Below, in pieces: positions 1,935 through 9,862 of a stretch of 9,892 bases of DNA (position 1 is its first letter; each line of letters starts with the position of its first letter). The stretch lies in the IMG/VR virus record IMGVR_UViG_2579779077_000004; one strand, written 5' to 3'. A program made the translations under genes and the position numbers. This DNA comes from a virus (lineage: Duplodnaviria > Heunggongvirae > Uroviricota > Caudoviricetes). The notes below the pieces were generated by a model that saw only the letters and a program-made list of their open reading frames with translations, was not told the DNA's origin and searched no databases.

Positions 1935-2236
1935 GCGAACCAAAATTTGGTGAAAAATTTTACAAGCACAACGGACGGATCACGATTCTGCAAATAAGCG
2001 CAGCTACACCAGGCTGGTGGGTTGAAACAGACGAAGGATCCTCACCCGTGGCATCATGGGCGCTTTGTGTGCTTAGTTACCCTGACCGCGATGTGTATCA
2101 GGATATTCTGCCTGTGATATCCACTGACAAAGGCATGAAACCCGTAGACATCAAAAACATGGGGTTTCAGTGCGTAATGCTCACTGAAAAAATGATGGAA
2201 GAGATGAAAAAGAACAATGCCGGATCGCTTCACTGA
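1931..2236 (+). CDS. Hypothetical protein (101 aa)
   Basis: Strong RBS GAGAGGTGG 5-13 nt upstream of the ATG at 1931, which is translationally coupled to the preceding ORF. No recognisable family. Confidence 0.55.
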   Translation: MSEPKFGEKFYKHNGRITILQISAATPGWWVETDEGSSPVASWALCVLSYPDRDVYQDILPVISTDKGMKPVDIKNMGFQCVMLTEKMMEEMKKNNAGSLH

Positions 2237-2245
2237 GGTGGCAAT

Positions 2246-2656
2246 ATGACAGCACAAATTGCAGCTTACGGGCGGCTGGTGGACGACCCGCAGGTAAAAC
2301 AGAGCAGCAAGGGCACACCGATGACTCTGGCGCGTATGGCGGTATCGTTGCCATGCAGCCAGGCACATGACGGACAGGCGACGTTATGGTTATCGGTTAT
2401 CGCATTTGGCAAACAGGCCGATTTCCTGGCTAAACATCAAAAAGGCGATGTTGCCAGCGTATCCGGCACGATGCAGGTAAGCCAGTGGACCGGACAGAAC
2501 GGGGAAACGCGGCGGGGGTATCAGGTTATTGCAGACAGCGTAATCAGTGCCCGCGCGGCACGTCCAGGCGGGAACAGACGCAAAACCACAGGCACACAGG
2601 GTAATCAGCCACCAGCGGGAGGCGATGACCCTTACGGTGACGGTATTCCGTTCTGA
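2246..2656 (+). CDS. ssb: Single-stranded DNA-binding protein (short SSB, OB fold)
   Basis: RBS GAGGTGG upstream. The N-terminal stretch IAAYGRLVDDPQV resembles the SSB motif (…VGNLGQDPEV…), there is a conserved W…FGK…A core, a Gly/Pro/Gln-rich linker, and a C-terminal acidic tail ending DDPYGDGIPF (compare the canonical SSB end …DDDIPF). Confidence 0.75.
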   Translation: MTAQIAAYGRLVDDPQVKQSSKGTPMTLARMAVSLPCSQAHDGQATLWLSVIAFGKQADFLAKHQKGDVASVSGTMQVSQWTGQNGETRRGYQVIADSVISARAARPGGNRRKTTGTQGNQPPAGGDDPYGDGIPF

Positions 2657-2666
2657 GGGGGTGACG

Positions 2667-2939
2667 ATGGCACATGACCGCATAGCGGAGGAACTCGAGG
2701 CAAAAGGCTTTTACCGGAGGGCGGCGGCGCGATGGGGTGAAGTCATGCAACTGGTGGAGACAGACAAGGAACGGCATCAGGTTACGATGCGACGGCTGGA
2801 ATGTTCCAGGAAGGCACAGAGGCCACCGGAGCCGCCGGATAACTTCGGAGACCTGAGAAAGGCAGTCGATCGCACTTATGCTGAAATGGGTATGGATGGT
2901 GTAAGCGATGAAATATGGCGTAATTACACAGACAGCTAA
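2667..2939 (+). CDS. PerC-family transcriptional regulator-like protein (90 aa)
   Basis: ATG at 2667 with GAGGGGG 6-12 nt upstream. The ORF-track start at 2547 would overlap ssb with no RBS. The N-terminal motif AEELEAKGFYRRAAARWGEVM matches my recollection of the PerC/Pch signature; this is a family-level call only. Confidence 0.55.
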   Translation: MAHDRIAEELEAKGFYRRAAARWGEVMQLVETDKERHQVTMRRLECSRKAQRPPEPPDNFGDLRKAVDRTYAEMGMDGVSDEIWRNYTDS

Positions 2940-2944
2940 TCAAC

Positions 2945-2966
2945 AGCCGGAGCAATCCGGCTTTTT
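2945..2966 (+). terminator. Rho-independent terminator after the PerC-like gene
   Basis: Stem AGCCGGA (2945-2951), GCAA tetraloop, TCCGGCT (2956-2962), followed by a T-run (2962-2966, then TTATTTTTT). Confidence 0.55.
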
Positions 2967-2986
2967 GTTATTTTTTGTAAATTATT

Positions 2987-3033
2987 TGTTCGTGGTTGTT
3001 CCACGTTGTTCACTGAGCGGATCGGCATATTTT
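2987..3033 (+). promoter_or_regulatory. Candidate promoter/operator for the head operon: three phased TTGTTC repeats and a sigma70-like -35/-10
   Basis: TTGTTC at 2987-2992, 2997-3002 and 3006-3011, spaced about one helical turn apart. The last one (-35-like) is followed after 16 nt by TATTTT at 3028-3033 (-10-like). A 5-bp inverted repeat CGTGG/CCACG lies at 2991-3005. Confidence 0.3.
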
Positions 3034-3087
3034 ACCCGAACTGAATCATGATTATTCTCGCCTGTGGTGCCAGGACGCTGGGGCCAC

Positions 3088-3135
3088 TTTCCCGCCTGTT
3101 AATGTGCTCGCCAATATTCATTACCAGGCGGGAAA
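3088..3135. promoter_or_regulatory. Perfect 11-bp inverted repeat in the capsid-gene leader (operator or RNA stem-loop)
   Basis: TTTCCCGCCTG (3088-3098) and CAGGCGGGAAA (3125-3135) are exact reverse complements separated by 26 nt. They are nested inside a 9-bp long-range inverted repeat, CCAGGACGC (3070-3078) and GCGTCCTGG (3187-3195). Confidence 0.35.
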
Positions 3136-3226
3136 ACGATCGGTGCGATTACTGATTTCCTTATGAAAAACGGTTGAGTGTTTGCCGCGTCCTGGAGTTC
3201 CTTACTTAACCCCAGGACTTTTTTTT

Positions 3227-4384
3227 ATGCCGAGAATAATCGAATTACGCCAGCAGAAAACCGCCATTAAAAATCAGATGCGCGACATGCTGGAGAACGC
3301 TGAAAAAGAAAACCGCAGTCTTAACGATGCTGAGGGCGCAAAATTTGACGAATTACGCGCTAAAGCTGAATCCCTCGATAAAGACATTTCCCGCCTTGAA
3401 GCCATTGCAGACGAAGAGCGCAGCAAGCCAGGTAAAAGCAGTCAGACCACTGACCCCGCAGAACTACGAAACTACATTCTGACGGGTGAAACCCGCGCAT
3501 TAAGTACAGGCGTTCCCGCTGATGGTGGTTATACCGTTATCCCCGAACTGAACACCGAAATCATGCGAATGCTGGCGGATGAATCCACCATGCGCCGCAT
3601 CTGTACCGTGAAGAAAATCAGCAGCAACGAGTTTAAGCAGCTTGTTTCCGCTGGCGGTGCGACCGTTAACCACGGTGAAGAGGGTAAGGCACGCGAACAG
3701 ACCAGCACCCCGCAGATTAACGAGGTGAGCATTAAGCTGTATCCGGTCTATGCGTACCCGCGCACCACACAGGAAATCGTGGATTTTTCCGATGTGGACA
3801 TCCTTTCATGGCTGACGGGTGAGATTGGCGACACCTTCACGGAAACCGAAGAAAGCGATCTGGTTGTGGGCGACGGTGACAAAAAAGCAAAAGGTTTTTT
3901 ATCCGTACCCCGTGCAGAGAAGAACGACAAAGAGCGTGATTTTGGTACGTTGCAGGTAATTAAACCTTCCGAATCTCTGGCGTGGACATCTGCGGACCCG
4001 CTGATCGACCTGAAATTTGCATTACGTAAAAAATACCGCAAAAACGCGGTCTGGGTGGTTAACTCCACGACGGCGGCAAAACTTCAGAAGGTGAAGAACG
4101 CGAACGGTGATTACATCTGGCGCGACCGTTTACAGGCGGGTGATCCTGATACGTTGCTGGGCCTTCCGGTCGAATATCTGGAGTTTATGCCTGATAACGT
4201 TATTGCCCTGGGTGACTTCAAACGCGGTTACTACATTGTTGATCACGAAACAGGTGTTCGCACCAGACCGGACAACCTCACAGAGCCGGGCTTCATCAAA
4301 ATTTTCACGCAGAAATATTTAGGCGGTGGCGTGGTGGATTCGAACGCGATCAAGATTCTGGAACTGCCACAGGACGACGATTAA
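3227..4384 (+). CDS. Major capsid protein, HK97 fold, with N-terminal coiled-coil delta (scaffolding) domain
   Basis: 385 aa from the ATG at 3227 (the ORF track begins at an upstream TTG at 3182). The N-terminus has a charged coiled-coil heptad pattern (IIELRQQKTAIKNQMRDMLENAEKENRSL…DELRAKAESLDKDISRLEAI), followed by a mature domain with HK97-MCP-like motifs (GGYTVIPEL…, …LLGLPVEY…). Confidence 0.9.
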   Translation: MPRIIELRQQKTAIKNQMRDMLENAEKENRSLNDAEGAKFDELRAKAESLDKDISRLEAIADEERSKPGKSSQTTDPAELRNYILTGETRALSTGVPADGGYTVIPELNTEIMRMLADESTMRRICTVKKISSNEFKQLVSAGGATVNHGEEGKAREQTSTPQINEVSIKLYPVYAYPRTTQEIVDFSDVDILSWLTGEIGDTFTETEESDLVVGDGDKKAKGFLSVPRAEKNDKERDFGTLQVIKPSESLAWTSADPLIDLKFALRKKYRKNAVWVVNSTTAAKLQKVKNANGDYIWRDRLQAGDPDTLLGLPVEYLEFMPDNVIALGDFKRGYYIVDHETGVRTRPDNLTEPGFIKIFTQKYLGGGVVDSNAIKILELPQDDD

Positions 4385-6544: not shown

Positions 6545-6837
6545 CAGAAGAACTTATCACCCTGGAAGAAGTGAAACTCCATTGCCGCATCGATGGCGAC
6601 GAGGAAGACCAGTTAATCAGCGGATACATTGCCGCATCGCTTGAGGCGTGCCAGATACACATAGGCAGGCGCTTTGATGACGGGCTGGAGTTCACGCCAG
6701 CCATAAAGATTGGCTGCATGATGTTTATCGCTCACCTGTATGAGAATCGCCAGATTGTCGCGGATAACGCAAAAACACGCGTACCCATGACGATTGGCGC
6801 ACTCTGGACGGCTTACCGTGATGTGGGGGTGTACTGA
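6541..6837 (+). CDS. gp6-like head-tail connector protein
   Basis: N-terminus LITLEEVKLHCRIDGDEEDQLISGYI resembles HK97 gp6-type connectors (…LTLEEAKAHLRVD…). ATGA overlap with the upstream gene; 98 aa. Confidence 0.8.
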   Translation: MTEELITLEEVKLHCRIDGDEEDQLISGYIAASLEACQIHIGRRFDDGLEFTPAIKIGCMMFIAHLYENRQIVADNAKTRVPMTIGALWTAYRDVGVY

Positions 6838-7277
6838 TGCCGTGGCAACCATTAAGACGATGCACAGAACCAGGCTGTAACAGGCGCGTTAAATCCGGCA
6901 AGTGTGAGGAGCACAGGCGGGCGGCATGGCGTGCAGAGGATGCCAGACGAGGACACCGCCGCGCGCGTGGATATTCCAGACAGTGGGACAAATACCGCGC
7001 CATGTATCTGAGTAAAAACCCGTTATGCGTGCGATGCCTTGAGAAGGGGATATATACGCCCGCCGTGGTGGTGGATCACATTATCCCGATTAATGGCGGT
7101 GATGATGTTCTCTTCTGGCCCGAATGGAACCATCAACCATTGTGTCAGGCGTGTCATAACCAGAAAACGAAATGGCTTGATCCGGCAACAAAAAGCAAGC
7201 GTGCCGCAGGTGGATTTCGTGAAGAGGAAGAACGGGCCGCTAACCGCAATAACTGGATGTATGACGCTGATGAATGA
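6837..7277 (+). CDS. HNH endonuclease, phage packaging-associated
   Basis: Cys-rich N-terminus (CTEPGCNRRVKSGKCEEH) and an HNH motif (VVDHIIPINGGDD…WNHQPLCQACHNQKT). The start overlaps the previous stop by 1 nt (TGATG). It sits just upstream of terS, as in HK97-like cos phages. Confidence 0.85.
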   Translation: MPWQPLRRCTEPGCNRRVKSGKCEEHRRAAWRAEDARRGHRRARGYSRQWDKYRAMYLSKNPLCVRCLEKGIYTPAVVVDHIIPINGGDDVLFWPEWNHQPLCQACHNQKTKWLDPATKSKRAAGGFREEEERAANRNNWMYDADE

Positions 7278-7446
7278 GCGGGAACAAAACCGCCTTATCC
7301 GTGGACTTATAAGGCAGCGTGACACATGGAAGACACAGGAAACAGGGCATAAAGATAAAGCGTCAGGACGCGCAGAACGCATCACAGCGAAGCGATTAAC
7401 CGACCGTGACCGCGAGGTTATGGAATGTTTCCGCAATCGCTGGTGA
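7261..7446 (+). CDS. Possible small basic protein (about 61 aa)
   Basis: ATG at 7261 in the +1 frame relative to HNH, overlapping its last 17 nt (MTLMNEREQNRLIRGLIRQRD…NRW). RBS is weak and no family is recognised. It occupies the HNH-terS spacer. Confidence 0.22.
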   Translation: MTLMNEREQNRLIRGLIRQRDTWKTQETGHKDKASGRAERITAKRLTDRDREVMECFRNRW

Positions 7447-7565
7447 TGCTGTATGACGGGGTGGGGGGCGTTTTCAGGACAAACCCGACCCCGCCGGGCA
7501 CCGAACGCCTCCTCAAATTTTTATGCACGGGAATTTTTTGAAAAATAATCTGGCGAAAAATAAGC
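7447..7565. other. Candidate cos / packaging-initiation region upstream of terS
   Basis: Non-coding spacer with a GC-rich element (GACGGGGTGGGGGGCG at 7455-7470, then CCCGACCCCGCCGGG) followed by an AT-rich stretch (AAATTTTTATGCACGGGAATTTTTTGAAAAATAATC). The assignment rests on position only. Confidence 0.3.
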
Positions 7566-7922
7566 ATGGCAAGACCACCGAAAGCCCCCGCCTACCTGGA
7601 TGACATCGCCGTGAAGCAGTGGCGGGAAAAATCGCGGCAGCTTGCGGAACGGGGAGACCTGACTCCCGCCGACTGGAGCAATCTGGAACTGTATTGTGTC
7701 AACTACTCCATTTACCGGAAAGCCGTTGCAGACCTTGCGGCGCGCGGGTTCAGCATTGTTAACAGTCAGGGCGGCGAGAGCAGAAACCCCGCATTAAGCG
7801 CAAAATCCGACGCTGAAAGAGTGATGATAAAAATGGCCTCCTTGCTCGGTTTTGACCCGATAAGCCGCCGTAAAAATCCACCGGAAACAGAAGAAGAGGA
7901 CGAGCTTGACCGCCTGGAATAA
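7566..7922 (+). CDS. terS: Terminase small subunit, P27 family
   Basis: 118 aa with a P27-family-like pattern (…LTPADWSNLELYCVNYSIYRKA…NPALSA…MIKMASLLGFDPISRRK) and an acidic C-terminus. Lies between the HNH and TerL genes. Confidence 0.85.
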   Translation: MARPPKAPAYLDDIAVKQWREKSRQLAERGDLTPADWSNLELYCVNYSIYRKAVADLAARGFSIVNSQGGESRNPALSAKSDAERVMIKMASLLGFDPISRRKNPPETEEEDELDRLE

Positions 7923-9567
7923 GTACGCAGAAGACGTAAAAACGGGCAAAATTCCGGCCTGTAAACGGCTGAAACAGGCCGTTAAACGGTACTTTTCGGA
8001 CCTTAAAAACCCCCTTTATACGTTCGATCGTGAGGTCGTGGAGCGGTTTATTGCCTTTTCCAGGGTGTGCCCGCACGTAAAAGGGCCGATGCGTGGCAGA
8101 CCCATTGAGCTGGAGCCGTGGCAGCAGTTCGCCTTTGCGTGCATCCTCGGCTTTAAGGTTAAGGCCACCGGACGGCGCAAATACACGAGCGCATTTATCG
8201 AAGTGCCGCGCAAAAATGCGAAATCCACGACCGCCGCGATTCTGGCTAACTGGTTTCTGATTATGGAGAACGGGCAGCAGGATATTTACACCGCAGCAGT
8301 GAGCCGTGACCAGGCGCGGATCGTTTTTGATGATGCGCGTCAGATGTGCCTTTTATCCCGACCGTTACGCAGGCGGGTGAATATTCAGGCCCACAAGGTG
8401 ATGCACCCGAAAAGCAACAGCCTGTTAAAGCCGCTGGCAGCAAAAGCGGCAACCATCGAGGGCACAAACCCAAGCCTTTCCATCGTGGACGAATACCACC
8501 TACACCCCGATAACGGCGTTTATTCCGCGCTTGAGCTGGGGATGGGCGCACGTCCCGAAGGGCTGTTATTTGCCATTACCACATCGGGCAGTAACGTCGT
8601 TTCAGCCTGTAAACAGCACTATGATTATTGCTGCCAGATCCTGGACGGCGAAGAGGTCAACGATTCAATTTTTGTGCTGATTTACGAGCTGGACGACGAA
8701 AACGAGGTTGATGATCCGGGGATGTGGATAAAGGCTAACCCTAACATCGATGTTTCCGTGGATCGTGAAAAACTGGCCTCAACCATCCAGAAAGCGCGGG
8801 GTATTCCGTCGCAATGGGTGGAGATGATGACAAAGCGATTTAATATCTGGTGCCAGGGGGCTACCCCGTGGATGGGTAACGGCGCATGGGTTGAGTGTGC
8901 CGGAACGTTCATGGAGGAAGATTTACACGGGCAGGAGTGTTACGCGGGGCTGGACTTATCATCAACCAGCGATATTTCCAGCGTGTGCTATGCCTTTCCG
9001 GTCGGTAAAACCATTATGCTGATTTCCCGTCATTATCTGCCGGAGTTCCAGCTACAGAACCCCGCCAATAAAAACCGCGCTGTCTATCGCCAGTGGGCTA
9101 AAGCGGGCTGGATACGCACAACGCCAGGTGACTGCATTGATTACGACCGGATCAGAGATGACATCATGCAGGATGCGGAGAAATTTAATATCAGGCTGGT
9201 GGGCTTTGATACGTGGAACGCCACGCATCTCAGGACGCAATTACAGGGGGCTGGTTTTGAGGTGGAGCCGTTCCCGCAAACCTACCTCAGATTCAGTCCG
9301 GCGGCGAAATCGTTCGAAGTTTTTGTTAACCGCAGGGTGATTGTGCATCGTGGCGATCCGGTGTTGTCCTGGTCGATGAGTAACGTCGTGATGCAGAGTG
9401 ACGCGAACGCCAATATCAAGCCGAACAAGAAAAAATCACCGAACAAGATAGACCCGAGCGTAGCGGCGCTGATGGCGTTTGGTACATTCCAGGCAGAGCA
9501 TGAGGATTTTGCTTTTGATATAAGCGACAGCCACCGCCAGAAACTGGAAGAATTTAGCGGGGTGTAA
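7906..9567 (+). CDS. terL: Terminase large subunit (ATPase plus nuclease)
   Basis: 553 aa. N-terminus WNKYAEDVKTGKIPACKRLKQAVKRYFSDLKN is typical of Terminase_1-type TerL. The apparent start is TTG at 7906 with GAGGA 5 nt upstream, overlapping terS by 17 nt in the +1 frame; there is no in-frame ATG or GTG between the upstream stop and this TTG. Confidence 0.9.
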   Translation: MTAWNKYAEDVKTGKIPACKRLKQAVKRYFSDLKNPLYTFDREVVERFIAFSRVCPHVKGPMRGRPIELEPWQQFAFACILGFKVKATGRRKYTSAFIEVPRKNAKSTTAAILANWFLIMENGQQDIYTAAVSRDQARIVFDDARQMCLLSRPLRRRVNIQAHKVMHPKSNSLLKPLAAKAATIEGTNPSLSIVDEYHLHPDNGVYSALELGMGARPEGLLFAITTSGSNVVSACKQHYDYCCQILDGEEVNDSIFVLIYELDDENEVDDPGMWIKANPNIDVSVDREKLASTIQKARGIPSQWVEMMTKRFNIWCQGATPWMGNGAWVECAGTFMEEDLHGQECYAGLDLSSTSDISSVCYAFPVGKTIMLISRHYLPEFQLQNPANKNRAVYRQWAKAGWIRTTPGDCIDYDRIRDDIMQDAEKFNIRLVGFDTWNATHLRTQLQGAGFEVEPFPQTYLRFSPAAKSFEVFVNRRVIVHRGDPVLSWSMSNVVMQSDANANIKPNKKKSPNKIDPSVAALMAFGTFQAEHEDFAFDISDSHRQKLEEFSGV

Positions 9568-9580
9568 TGAGGTCAGCAGC

Positions 9581-9862
9581 ATGACAGAAGCCGAAATACT
9601 GCGATTAATCCGCCGCGTCTCTGGAATCAGCCAGCAGGCTGACGAACAGACCACGCAGCCGGACAGCGTGACAGCCGAAAATTATGCGCGTGTTGTTGCT
9701 GAGGTGATGCGCCGTGATGGTATCCAGCTTAATGATGCGGATATGCGCGACATACGGATCCGCGTTCTGGAAATGCTGGCCTACAATCGCCGCGTTGAAC
9801 TGTATCGGGAGAAGGAGAAAATCACGTACCACTGGAAGAAGCCGGAGCGGTTACGGCGGTAA
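9581..9862 (+). CDS. Hypothetical protein (93 aa) downstream of terL
   Basis: ATG at 9581 with GAGG about 10 nt upstream. Charged, probably alpha-helical protein (MTEAEILRLIRRVSG…); no family recognised. Confidence 0.5.
   Translation: MTEAEILRLIRRVSGISQQADEQTTQPDSVTAENYARVVAEVMRRDGIQLNDADMRDIRIRVLEMLAYNRRVELYREKEKITYHWKKPERLRR

Follow-up and report, generated by a model that had tools for sequence, protein, structure and literature searches.

The gap between the HNH and terS genes

The 9,892-nucleotide stretch of viral DNA analyzed here (IMG/VR record IMGVR_UViG_2579779077_000004; "the window", numbered from its first letter) represents the packaging module of an EcCIEDL933-type capsid-forming phage-inducible chromosomal island (cf-PICI). 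The subject of the present work is the gap between its genes for the HNH endonuclease and the small terminase subunit (TerS), which holds a strong candidate for the cos site of the island. The HNH gene stops at 7277 and terS starts at 7566, leaving 288 bp (7278–7565), while all other junctions from the capsid gene to the gene of the large terminase subunit (TerL) lie between -46 and +39 nt. An earlier reading made from the letters alone (the sequence-only reading) had described this gap, with exact coordinates, as unlike the tight coupling elsewhere, and had seen in it a GC-rich element followed by an AT-rich stretch, which the base composition bears out. The segment 7455–7494 has 70% GC, a level that is unexceptional by itself, being reached by 199 of the 9853 40-nt windows (2%), and in the window copy it contains an imperfect inverted repeat (7457–7466 and 7484–7493, 10 nt, 9/10 complementary). 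With 28% GC, 7513–7565 is the most AT-rich stretch and holds 7 of the 11 equally AT-rich 53-nt windows of the whole sequence. The gap consists of two parts, a small gene (7270–7446) and a non-coding core of 119 bp (7447–7565), and the features of the locus are as follows.

6837–7277, plus strand: HNH endonuclease, gp74-like packaging cofactor (PF01844, E 1.8e-8; phrog_144, E 8e-45)
7270–7446, plus strand: small basic gene, 58 aa, phrog_3173; its ATG overlaps the HNH stop (ATGAATGA); PGAP start 7261
7458–7468, plus strand: G-box (GGGGTGGGGGG), upstream element of the putative cos; GGGG core invariant in 32/32 spacers and present in an independently selected metagenome set
7470–7482, plus strand: conserved GTTTTCAGGACAA block, from the alignments; the right-hand end of a particle-derived Klebsiella contig aligns to 7480
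7483–7499, plus strand: variable segment of fixed length; the sequence varies, the length is constant within 1 nt over 49 representatives, no covariation
7500–7512, no strand assigned: ACCG motif and C-rich box (ACCGAACGCCTCC), predicted cosN; ACC invariant in 32/32; aligns to the HK97 and phi105 cos
7513–7548, no strand assigned: AT-rich conserved block (TCAAATTTTTATGCACGG GAATTTTTTGAAAAATAA), predicted cosB-like TerS side; near-identical from E. coli to Pasteurella
7566–7922, plus strand: small terminase (TerS), P27 family (PF05119, E 1.3e-23; TIGR01558, E 1.9e-16)
7906–9567, plus strand: large terminase (TerL), HK97-like (PF03354 and PF20441)

Spacers related to the core were gathered in four ways, namely through homology of the TerS protein, through phage records with a homologous TerL, with an 18-nt motif in IMG/VR, and with a different right-hand motif in metagenomes. 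The profile and the spacing were derived from 49 representative spacers, and the column invariance and the consensus fold from 32 non-redundant ones. The same blocks, in the same order and at nearly invariant spacing, are found in E. coli, Klebsiella/Enterobacter-type, and Pasteurellaceae elements: the G-box (7458–7468), GTTTT.A..A.AA, a variable segment of about 16 nt, ACC(G/A) (7500–7503), the C-rich box (7504–7512), (T)CAAATTTTT.YGCAMGG (7513–7530), and ..ATTTTTT.GAAAATAA (7531–7548). The 18-nt motif, which belongs to the AT-rich block, is present in more than 120 IMG/VR contigs. Among the columns lying outside the search patterns, GGGG, ACC, and the T-run are invariant in 32/32 spacers and are also conserved in the independent metagenome set. 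The core is 69% identical to that of the Pasteurella element Pmp8, for which HNH, terS, terL, and the connector show 54–66%, and 79% identical to that of a Klebsiella element, for which the flanking genes show 71–77%; that is, the 119 bp are conserved at least as well as the neighboring genes. The GC-rich hairpin of the window copy is not conserved among the relatives.

Some variation is seen among the copies themselves. Homopolymer lengths differ among otherwise identical E. coli copies (the window and many IMG/VR loci), the final G-run of the G-box (7463–7468) having 5–8 G and the A-run before terS (7555–7559) 5–7 A. In IMGVR_UViG_2713896771_000020, the spacer is of the window type up to ...CGCCTCC and, from TCAAATTTTTGT onward, of the type paired with an 89%-identical TerS, which points to a recombination joint at or beside the cut predicted below.

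Ends of packaged DNA and the predicted cut

Two independent virion-derived assemblies break in the 119-bp spacer, both being assembly breakpoints and both coming from relatives of the window element. The more informative one is LR881103.1 (vB_KppS-Ant), a linear contig of 16,548 bp with no terminal overlap. Particles of a lysate on K. pneumoniae DSM 30104 had supplied the DNA, which went through Nextera XT library preparation and SPAdes assembly, and the contig was reported to be more than 99% identical to the host chromosome and described as a filamentous ssDNA phage or an induced prophage (PMC8006926). Its genes are those of the cf-PICI of K. pneumoniae DSM 30104, the strain of the island KpCIDSM30104, and its TerL is 81% identical to that of the window; the label "tail length tape measure protein" on its ORF 2036–4333 looks doubtful. 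KpCIDSM30104 is massively packaged in small capsids (bioRxiv 10.1101/2025.02.11.637232).

The vB_KppS-Ant contig begins 22 nt ahead of terS, and its last letters are ...GGTTTTCAGGAC; it is a circular permutation of the integrated order (terS-terL-...-int-...-HNH). Stretches of 3755 nt at one of its ends and 4176 nt at the other are 100% identical to the chromosome of K. pneumoniae ATCC 13883 (= DSM 30104). Where these ends face each other, the chromosome holds 69 nt that the contig lacks, GAACACGAGGGCGCCAGGCACCACCCGCCCCC TCAAATTTTTTCGCACGGTGATTTTTTTGAAAATAAA, equivalent to window positions 7481–7549; measured from the predicted cut, the ends are 32 nt and 37 nt away. Because tagmentation under-samples the last tens of bases, the contig is as expected from a cos-cut linear molecule. 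The other assembly is that of Klebsiella phage P12620-1 (PQ569648.1, 106.5 kb), in which a terminal cf-PICI block of 15.9 kb runs from the terS start codon to the 3' end of the small ORF. This record looks chimeric, with the terS start codon marking the exact junction between the cf-PICI and unrelated sequence.

A few further boundaries were inspected. Those of four loci near the spacer (L158, L126, L095, and L243) are storage boundaries, and their number is about that expected by chance. One of them, L243 (JAEHJW020008655.1, 1–2409), begins with CAAATTTTTAC..., 1 nt from the predicted cut, and was rejected as end evidence, as the scaffold continues and the boundary is probably one of storage or a gap, at about chance level. 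A short contig (L273) starts 70 nt to the left of the predicted cut, and a Logan contig encoding a Klebsiella-type small protein breaks near int, not at cos.

The position of the cut can be estimated from the mapped cos sites of HK97 and phi105, both of which place the left nick beside the invariant ACC, and hence at about 7502|7503, while the right nick of HK97 lies about 10 nt further, corresponding to about 7512|7513. By this analogy, staggered nicks are predicted near 7512|7513 (top strand) and near 7502|7503 (bottom strand), which would leave a 3' overhang of about 10 nt at ~7503–7512 (GAACGCCTCC). That the cut falls at 7503–7513 (±3 nt) is about an even bet, and that cos lies somewhere in 7447–7565 is very probable. 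The sequence-only reading had pointed to the GC-rich element 7455–7494. Its G-box part (7458–7468) is indeed conserved, but the hairpin is not, and the cut is here placed instead at the boundary of the C-rich box and the AT-rich block.

Taken together, we read 7447–7565 as the island's own cos site, cut by its own terminase, with a probability of about 0.8. The proposal that the gap is the most likely place of the packaging signal is thus upheld by the conservation, by the HK97/phi105 layout, by the break in the particle contig of the relative, and by the absence of alternative signals. As to the terminase, all packaging-module genes of EcCIEDL933 are required for transfer of the island and none for transfer of the helper (EcCIEDL933 study). 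The helper of EcCIEDL933 contributes tails only, and in neither of the two published cf-PICIs are the packaging genes of phage and PICI interchangeable (bioRxiv 10.1101/2022.09.08.507074; 10.1101/2025.02.11.637232). HNH, TerS, TerL, and the capsid proteins are all encoded by the island itself, and this non-interchangeability implies that the site would fit the terminase of the island rather than that of the helper.

The following sequence of events is envisaged. After excision and replication, the island TerS (P27) would bind the AT-rich block at ~7513–7548, just upstream of its own gene, and TerL, aided by HNH, would make the staggered nicks in the ACCG/C-rich box. Packaging would then start from the terS side and proceed around the island into the small capsids that it encodes. 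At the next cos, the G-box on the last-packaged side, in a position analogous to the cosQ of lambda, would terminate the process at unit length, and the G-box is possibly a cosQ-like termination signal.

We have also considered that the spacer is a transcription signal rather than a packaging site, either an internal promoter or activator site for terS-terL or a terminator/attenuator following HNH and the small ORF. Such a role would suit its location directly upstream of terS, the AT-rich tract, which could serve as a UP-like or bent element, and the GC-rich inverted repeat of the window copy. However, neither a sigma-70-like promoter on the plus strand nor a terminator-like site was found in 6800–8000, the spacer matches no Rfam family, and the folding of its RNA is not better than that of shuffled sequences (z = -0.6). 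Relatives do not share the inverted repeat, and the RNAalifold consensus structure of the 32 spacers (-2.1 kcal/mol) consists of trivial G-run/C-run pairing only, with no covariation. An intrinsic terminator made of a conserved GC-rich stem and the T-run was accordingly rejected, no site being found and the stem being neither conserved nor covarying. A transcription signal would moreover leave the breaks of the particle assemblies and the HK97/phi105-like layout unexplained, and we regard it as quite improbable.

A different possibility is that cos is indeed in the spacer but is cut in or beside the G-box and the GC-rich element 7455–7494, the ACCG/C-rich box being a protein-binding element. 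Among the GC-rich elements, the G-box varies least, GC-rich cohesive ends are common, and 7481–7494 falls within the 69 nt that the Klebsiella particle contig lacks. On the other hand, the homologous G-run of HK97 is 42 nt to the left of the mapped cut and the annotated overhang of phi105 begins right after GACC. The vB_KppS-Ant contig covers the entire G-box up to the equivalent of 7480, and this reading past the G-box puts the right end of the packaged DNA beyond it. A cut at the G-box is therefore considered improbable. Headful (pac) packaging, with the spacer as a pac recognition site and no fixed ends, is highly improbable. It is true that TerS-proximal recognition sites occur in pac systems too, but the pairing of a gp74-like HNH and an HK97-like TerL is the mark of HNH-dependent cos packaging (PMC9410871), the DNA of cf-PICIs has unit length when packaged and re-anneals via cohesive ends (bioRxiv 10.1101/2025.02.11.637232), and the particle contig is linear, shows no permutation, and lacks terminal redundancy.

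Several observations weigh against the assignment of 7447–7565 as the cos site. The similarity to the HK97 cos is weak (profile E 0.05, left half only), and pairwise local alignments of the window, Pmp8, and ECO95 spacers with the HK97 cos junction score no better than dinucleotide shuffles. The island TerS (P27/PF05119) has no BLASTP similarity to HK97 gp1, which itself matches no P27 model. The end evidence comes from a relative (81% TerL identity) and consists of assembly breakpoints rather than read-start pile-ups, and a contig break at the G-run/C-run homopolymers could in principle be a sequencing artefact. Finally, contig ends do not pile up in the spacer among ~240 IMG/VR and metagenome loci; most of these are integrated copies, so that the lack of a pile-up tells little either way.

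The small basic gene and the surrounding element

The part of the gap preceding the core, 7270–7446, is a real, translationally coupled gene for a basic protein of 58 aa. The sequence-only reading had proposed an unannotated 61-aa ORF at 7261–7446. That frame is open, but the conserved start is the ATG at 7270, any earlier start being excluded in the Klebsiella homologue by an in-frame stop, and the ORF is already labeled as a hypothetical protein by RefSeq/PGAP (WP_000174068.1). All E. coli matches to the HNH-terS segment, among the matches listed, have a hypothetical-protein feature at this position. The protein is a full-length match to phrog_3173 (E 2.8e-36; residues 1–57 to profile positions 1–57 of 57), with no match in Pfam/NCBIfam. 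Counted as cluster representatives in the databases, its homologues number 65 and come from E. coli, Klebsiella, Enterobacter, Citrobacter, Cronobacter, Salmonella, and Hafnia, and 72 distinct nucleotide variants, of 153, 174, or 177 nt, retain the frame. An alignment of 28 proteins shows conservation at the N-terminus and in the C-terminal RDRE..ECFRNR motif, with insertions and deletions of whole codons; L9, L13, and the C-x-RNR at the C-terminus are among the invariant residues, and F54 is nearly invariant. The codon-position bias of the ORF is modest only. The AlphaFold2 model is one long helix (pLDDT 76), and the protein is thus probably all-helical. The phrog_3173-type family is narrow, with 5 representatives among 1.84 billion clusters.

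The small ORF is absent from the Pasteurellaceae cf-PICI-like elements Pmp7 and Pmp8 and from some enterobacterial ones. As the downstream non-coding block is kept in these islands, the ORF is best regarded as an accessory and not as a core part of the site. In EcCIEDL933, loss of the "hypothetical gene 1792" of the module severely reduces transfer (EcCIEDL933 study). This gene is given no coordinates in the text; both the phrog_3173 ORF and the ORF after terL are candidates.

Upstream of the packaging genes, the window encodes a RepA/AAA_25 helicase (85–1482), an SSB, and a PerC-like regulator, as judged from ORFs and domain matches. The capsid-to-terL module then follows in the order major capsid (3182–4384), HK97-type prohead protease, portal, head-closure, gp6-like connector, HNH, TerS, TerL, and a 93-aa ORF, in agreement with the order described for proteobacterial cf-PICIs (capsid-protease-portal-connectors-hnh-terS-terL; bioRxiv 10.1101/2022.09.08.507074). 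By BLASTP, the HNH protein is 39% identical to HK97 gp74 (E 2e-19) and TerL is 27% identical to HK97 gp2 (E 1e-46). Of 5426 complete E. coli genomes, 515 have a match to the HNH-terS segment (6837–7922), and that of strain ST130 scores best, with 99.5% identity over 6837–7922. At this locus, the host gene phoQ lies ~0.8 kb past the last island ORF, and tail genes are found neither there nor in the window.

At the two edges of the module, some side observations can be added. The 93-aa ORF directly 3' of terL (9581–9862) is a full-length match to phrog_1561, a family of unknown function (E 1.5e-55). Upstream of the capsid gene, 2940–3181 is a relatively AT-rich region of ~240 bp to which we assigned no gene, and PGAP has a 225-bp hypothetical CDS within the equivalent region of the ST130 copy. 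Located downstream of the gene of the PerC-family regulator, this region is a likely place for the promoter or regulatory region of the packaging operon.

Comparison with mapped cos sites and published systems

In HK97, in phi105, and in the window, the cos or candidate cos is preceded by HNH and a small ORF and followed by terS. HK97 has 10-nt 3' overhangs, and its TerS binds at +15..+29, reading G and the adjacent A-tract (PMC11331095; PMC9410871). The termini of the HK97 GenBank record are the cohesive ends: the right one is ...GGGCAGGGGGGGGGATC...GACCGCCGCCAAA, with 42 nt from the G-run to the end, and the left one is GTTTGAATTTAACGCTAACCCGATTTTTTTAG..., 49 nt before terS. The region of the C-rich box aligns to HK97 ...GACCGCCGCCAAA|GTTTG, and both sites have (G)ACCG and a C-rich tract at the mapped or predicted cut. 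The G-run, 42 nt to the left of the cut in HK97, finds its counterpart in the G-box of the window, which ends at 7468, 42–44 nt from the end of ACCGAACGCCTCC (7512). On the other side, a G/C triplet followed by a T-run starts at 7534 in the window, i.e., at +22 for a cut at 7512|7513, and at +24 in HK97, inside the TerS site.

A profile hidden Markov model of the 49 non-redundant cf-PICI spacers was searched against both strands of the circularized HK97 genome, and the best match is at the cos junction (E 0.05). The E-value is marginal, but the match lies in the pre-expected ~100 nt of the ~80,000 scanned. The alignment pairs the G-box with the G-run and ACCgcccgcc with ACCGCC-GCC and is limited to the left half, the right half of the HK97 cos not being alignable to the window. 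This confinement to the TerL/HNH side fits the dissimilarity of the island TerS and gp1, which also makes the analogy of the TerS sites a positional one only. An attempt to carry over the Arg128/G21 contact of the HK97 TerS was dropped for the same reason, namely that the TerS families differ. The window element further differs from HK97 in being a satellite that makes its own capsids and has no tail genes.

phi105 resembles the window in the order HNH, small ORF, cos, terS, terL, in a TerS of the same family (PF05119), and in its TerL (35% identity). Its annotated 7-nt cohesive end GCGCTCC stands in the context ...GGAGACC[GCGCTCC]CCTCCCCATTTTGATAAAT..., so that the overhang directly follows (G)ACC and leads into a C-rich tract (CCTCCCC), which is followed by an ATTTTGA-type AT block. 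It differs in being a phage of a Gram-positive host (Bacillus), in the 7-nt length of the overhang, and in having no G-box at the matching distance. The small ORF of phi105, gp52, is probably unrelated to phrog_3173. HK97, too, has an unannotated ORF of 67–83 aa, which lies upstream of cos and overlaps HNH gp74 at its 3' end (NC_002167 39346/39394–39597; 547/595–798 in locus L208), and gp52 (95 aa; 498–785 in locus L214) occupies the same position, so that the arrangement HNH - small ORF - cos - terS recurs. No Pfam family was found for either gp52 or the HK97 ORF.

The sequence-only reading had also suggested that this site decides which capsids package the element and that it should be compared with helper cos sites. 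An identical cos in a helper is not to be expected, although the left half of the site has some resemblance to HK97-type cos sites. A tentative reading, which we consider rather unlikely as a whole, is that cos is modular, which would explain the packaging exclusion between island and helper, with the phrog_3173 protein as an accessory factor devoted to cos in the enterobacterial cf-PICIs. Its left part (G-box, ACC, and the C-rich nick site) would then be shared with HK97-type helpers as a result of the homologous TerL and HNH, and the right half would have been exchanged for one fitting another TerS family (P27). On such a reading, the small protein might act, for example, in end protection, in termination at the G-box, or in discrimination against the helper terminase, and its gene might be the gene 1792 of EcCIEDL933.

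cf-PICIs cross species and genera by borrowing tails, and package only themselves. With the cis site and its blocks known, cos plasmids mobilized by cf-PICI capsids could be built, packaged cf-PICI DNA could be recognized in viromes, for example in records mislabeled as phages, and islands able to cross-package could be predicted. It also becomes testable how a satellite and its helper, both HNH-dependent cos systems, avoid cross-packaging.

The likeness to the cos of lambda (cosQ-cosN-cosB) is a functional analogy only, with a termination element on the last-packaged side, a nick site in the middle, and a TerS side next to the terminase genes. Lambda has 5' overhangs of 12 nt, needs no HNH, and uses the gpNu1/gpA terminase of other families. 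The candidate site described here would belong to a known kind, the HNH-dependent 3'-cos sites, and what is new is its more precise placement, so that the expected biology is refined and no new mechanism is involved. Neither of the two cf-PICI preprints (bioRxiv 10.1101/2022.09.08.507074; 10.1101/2025.02.11.637232) gives a cos sequence or cut, and no cf-PICI termini-mapping paper is among the matches listed by a literature search. As cos is not mapped in these preprints, the site is described here more precisely than before. KpCIDSM30104, for its part, has the same module order, spacer architecture, and small ORF as the window.

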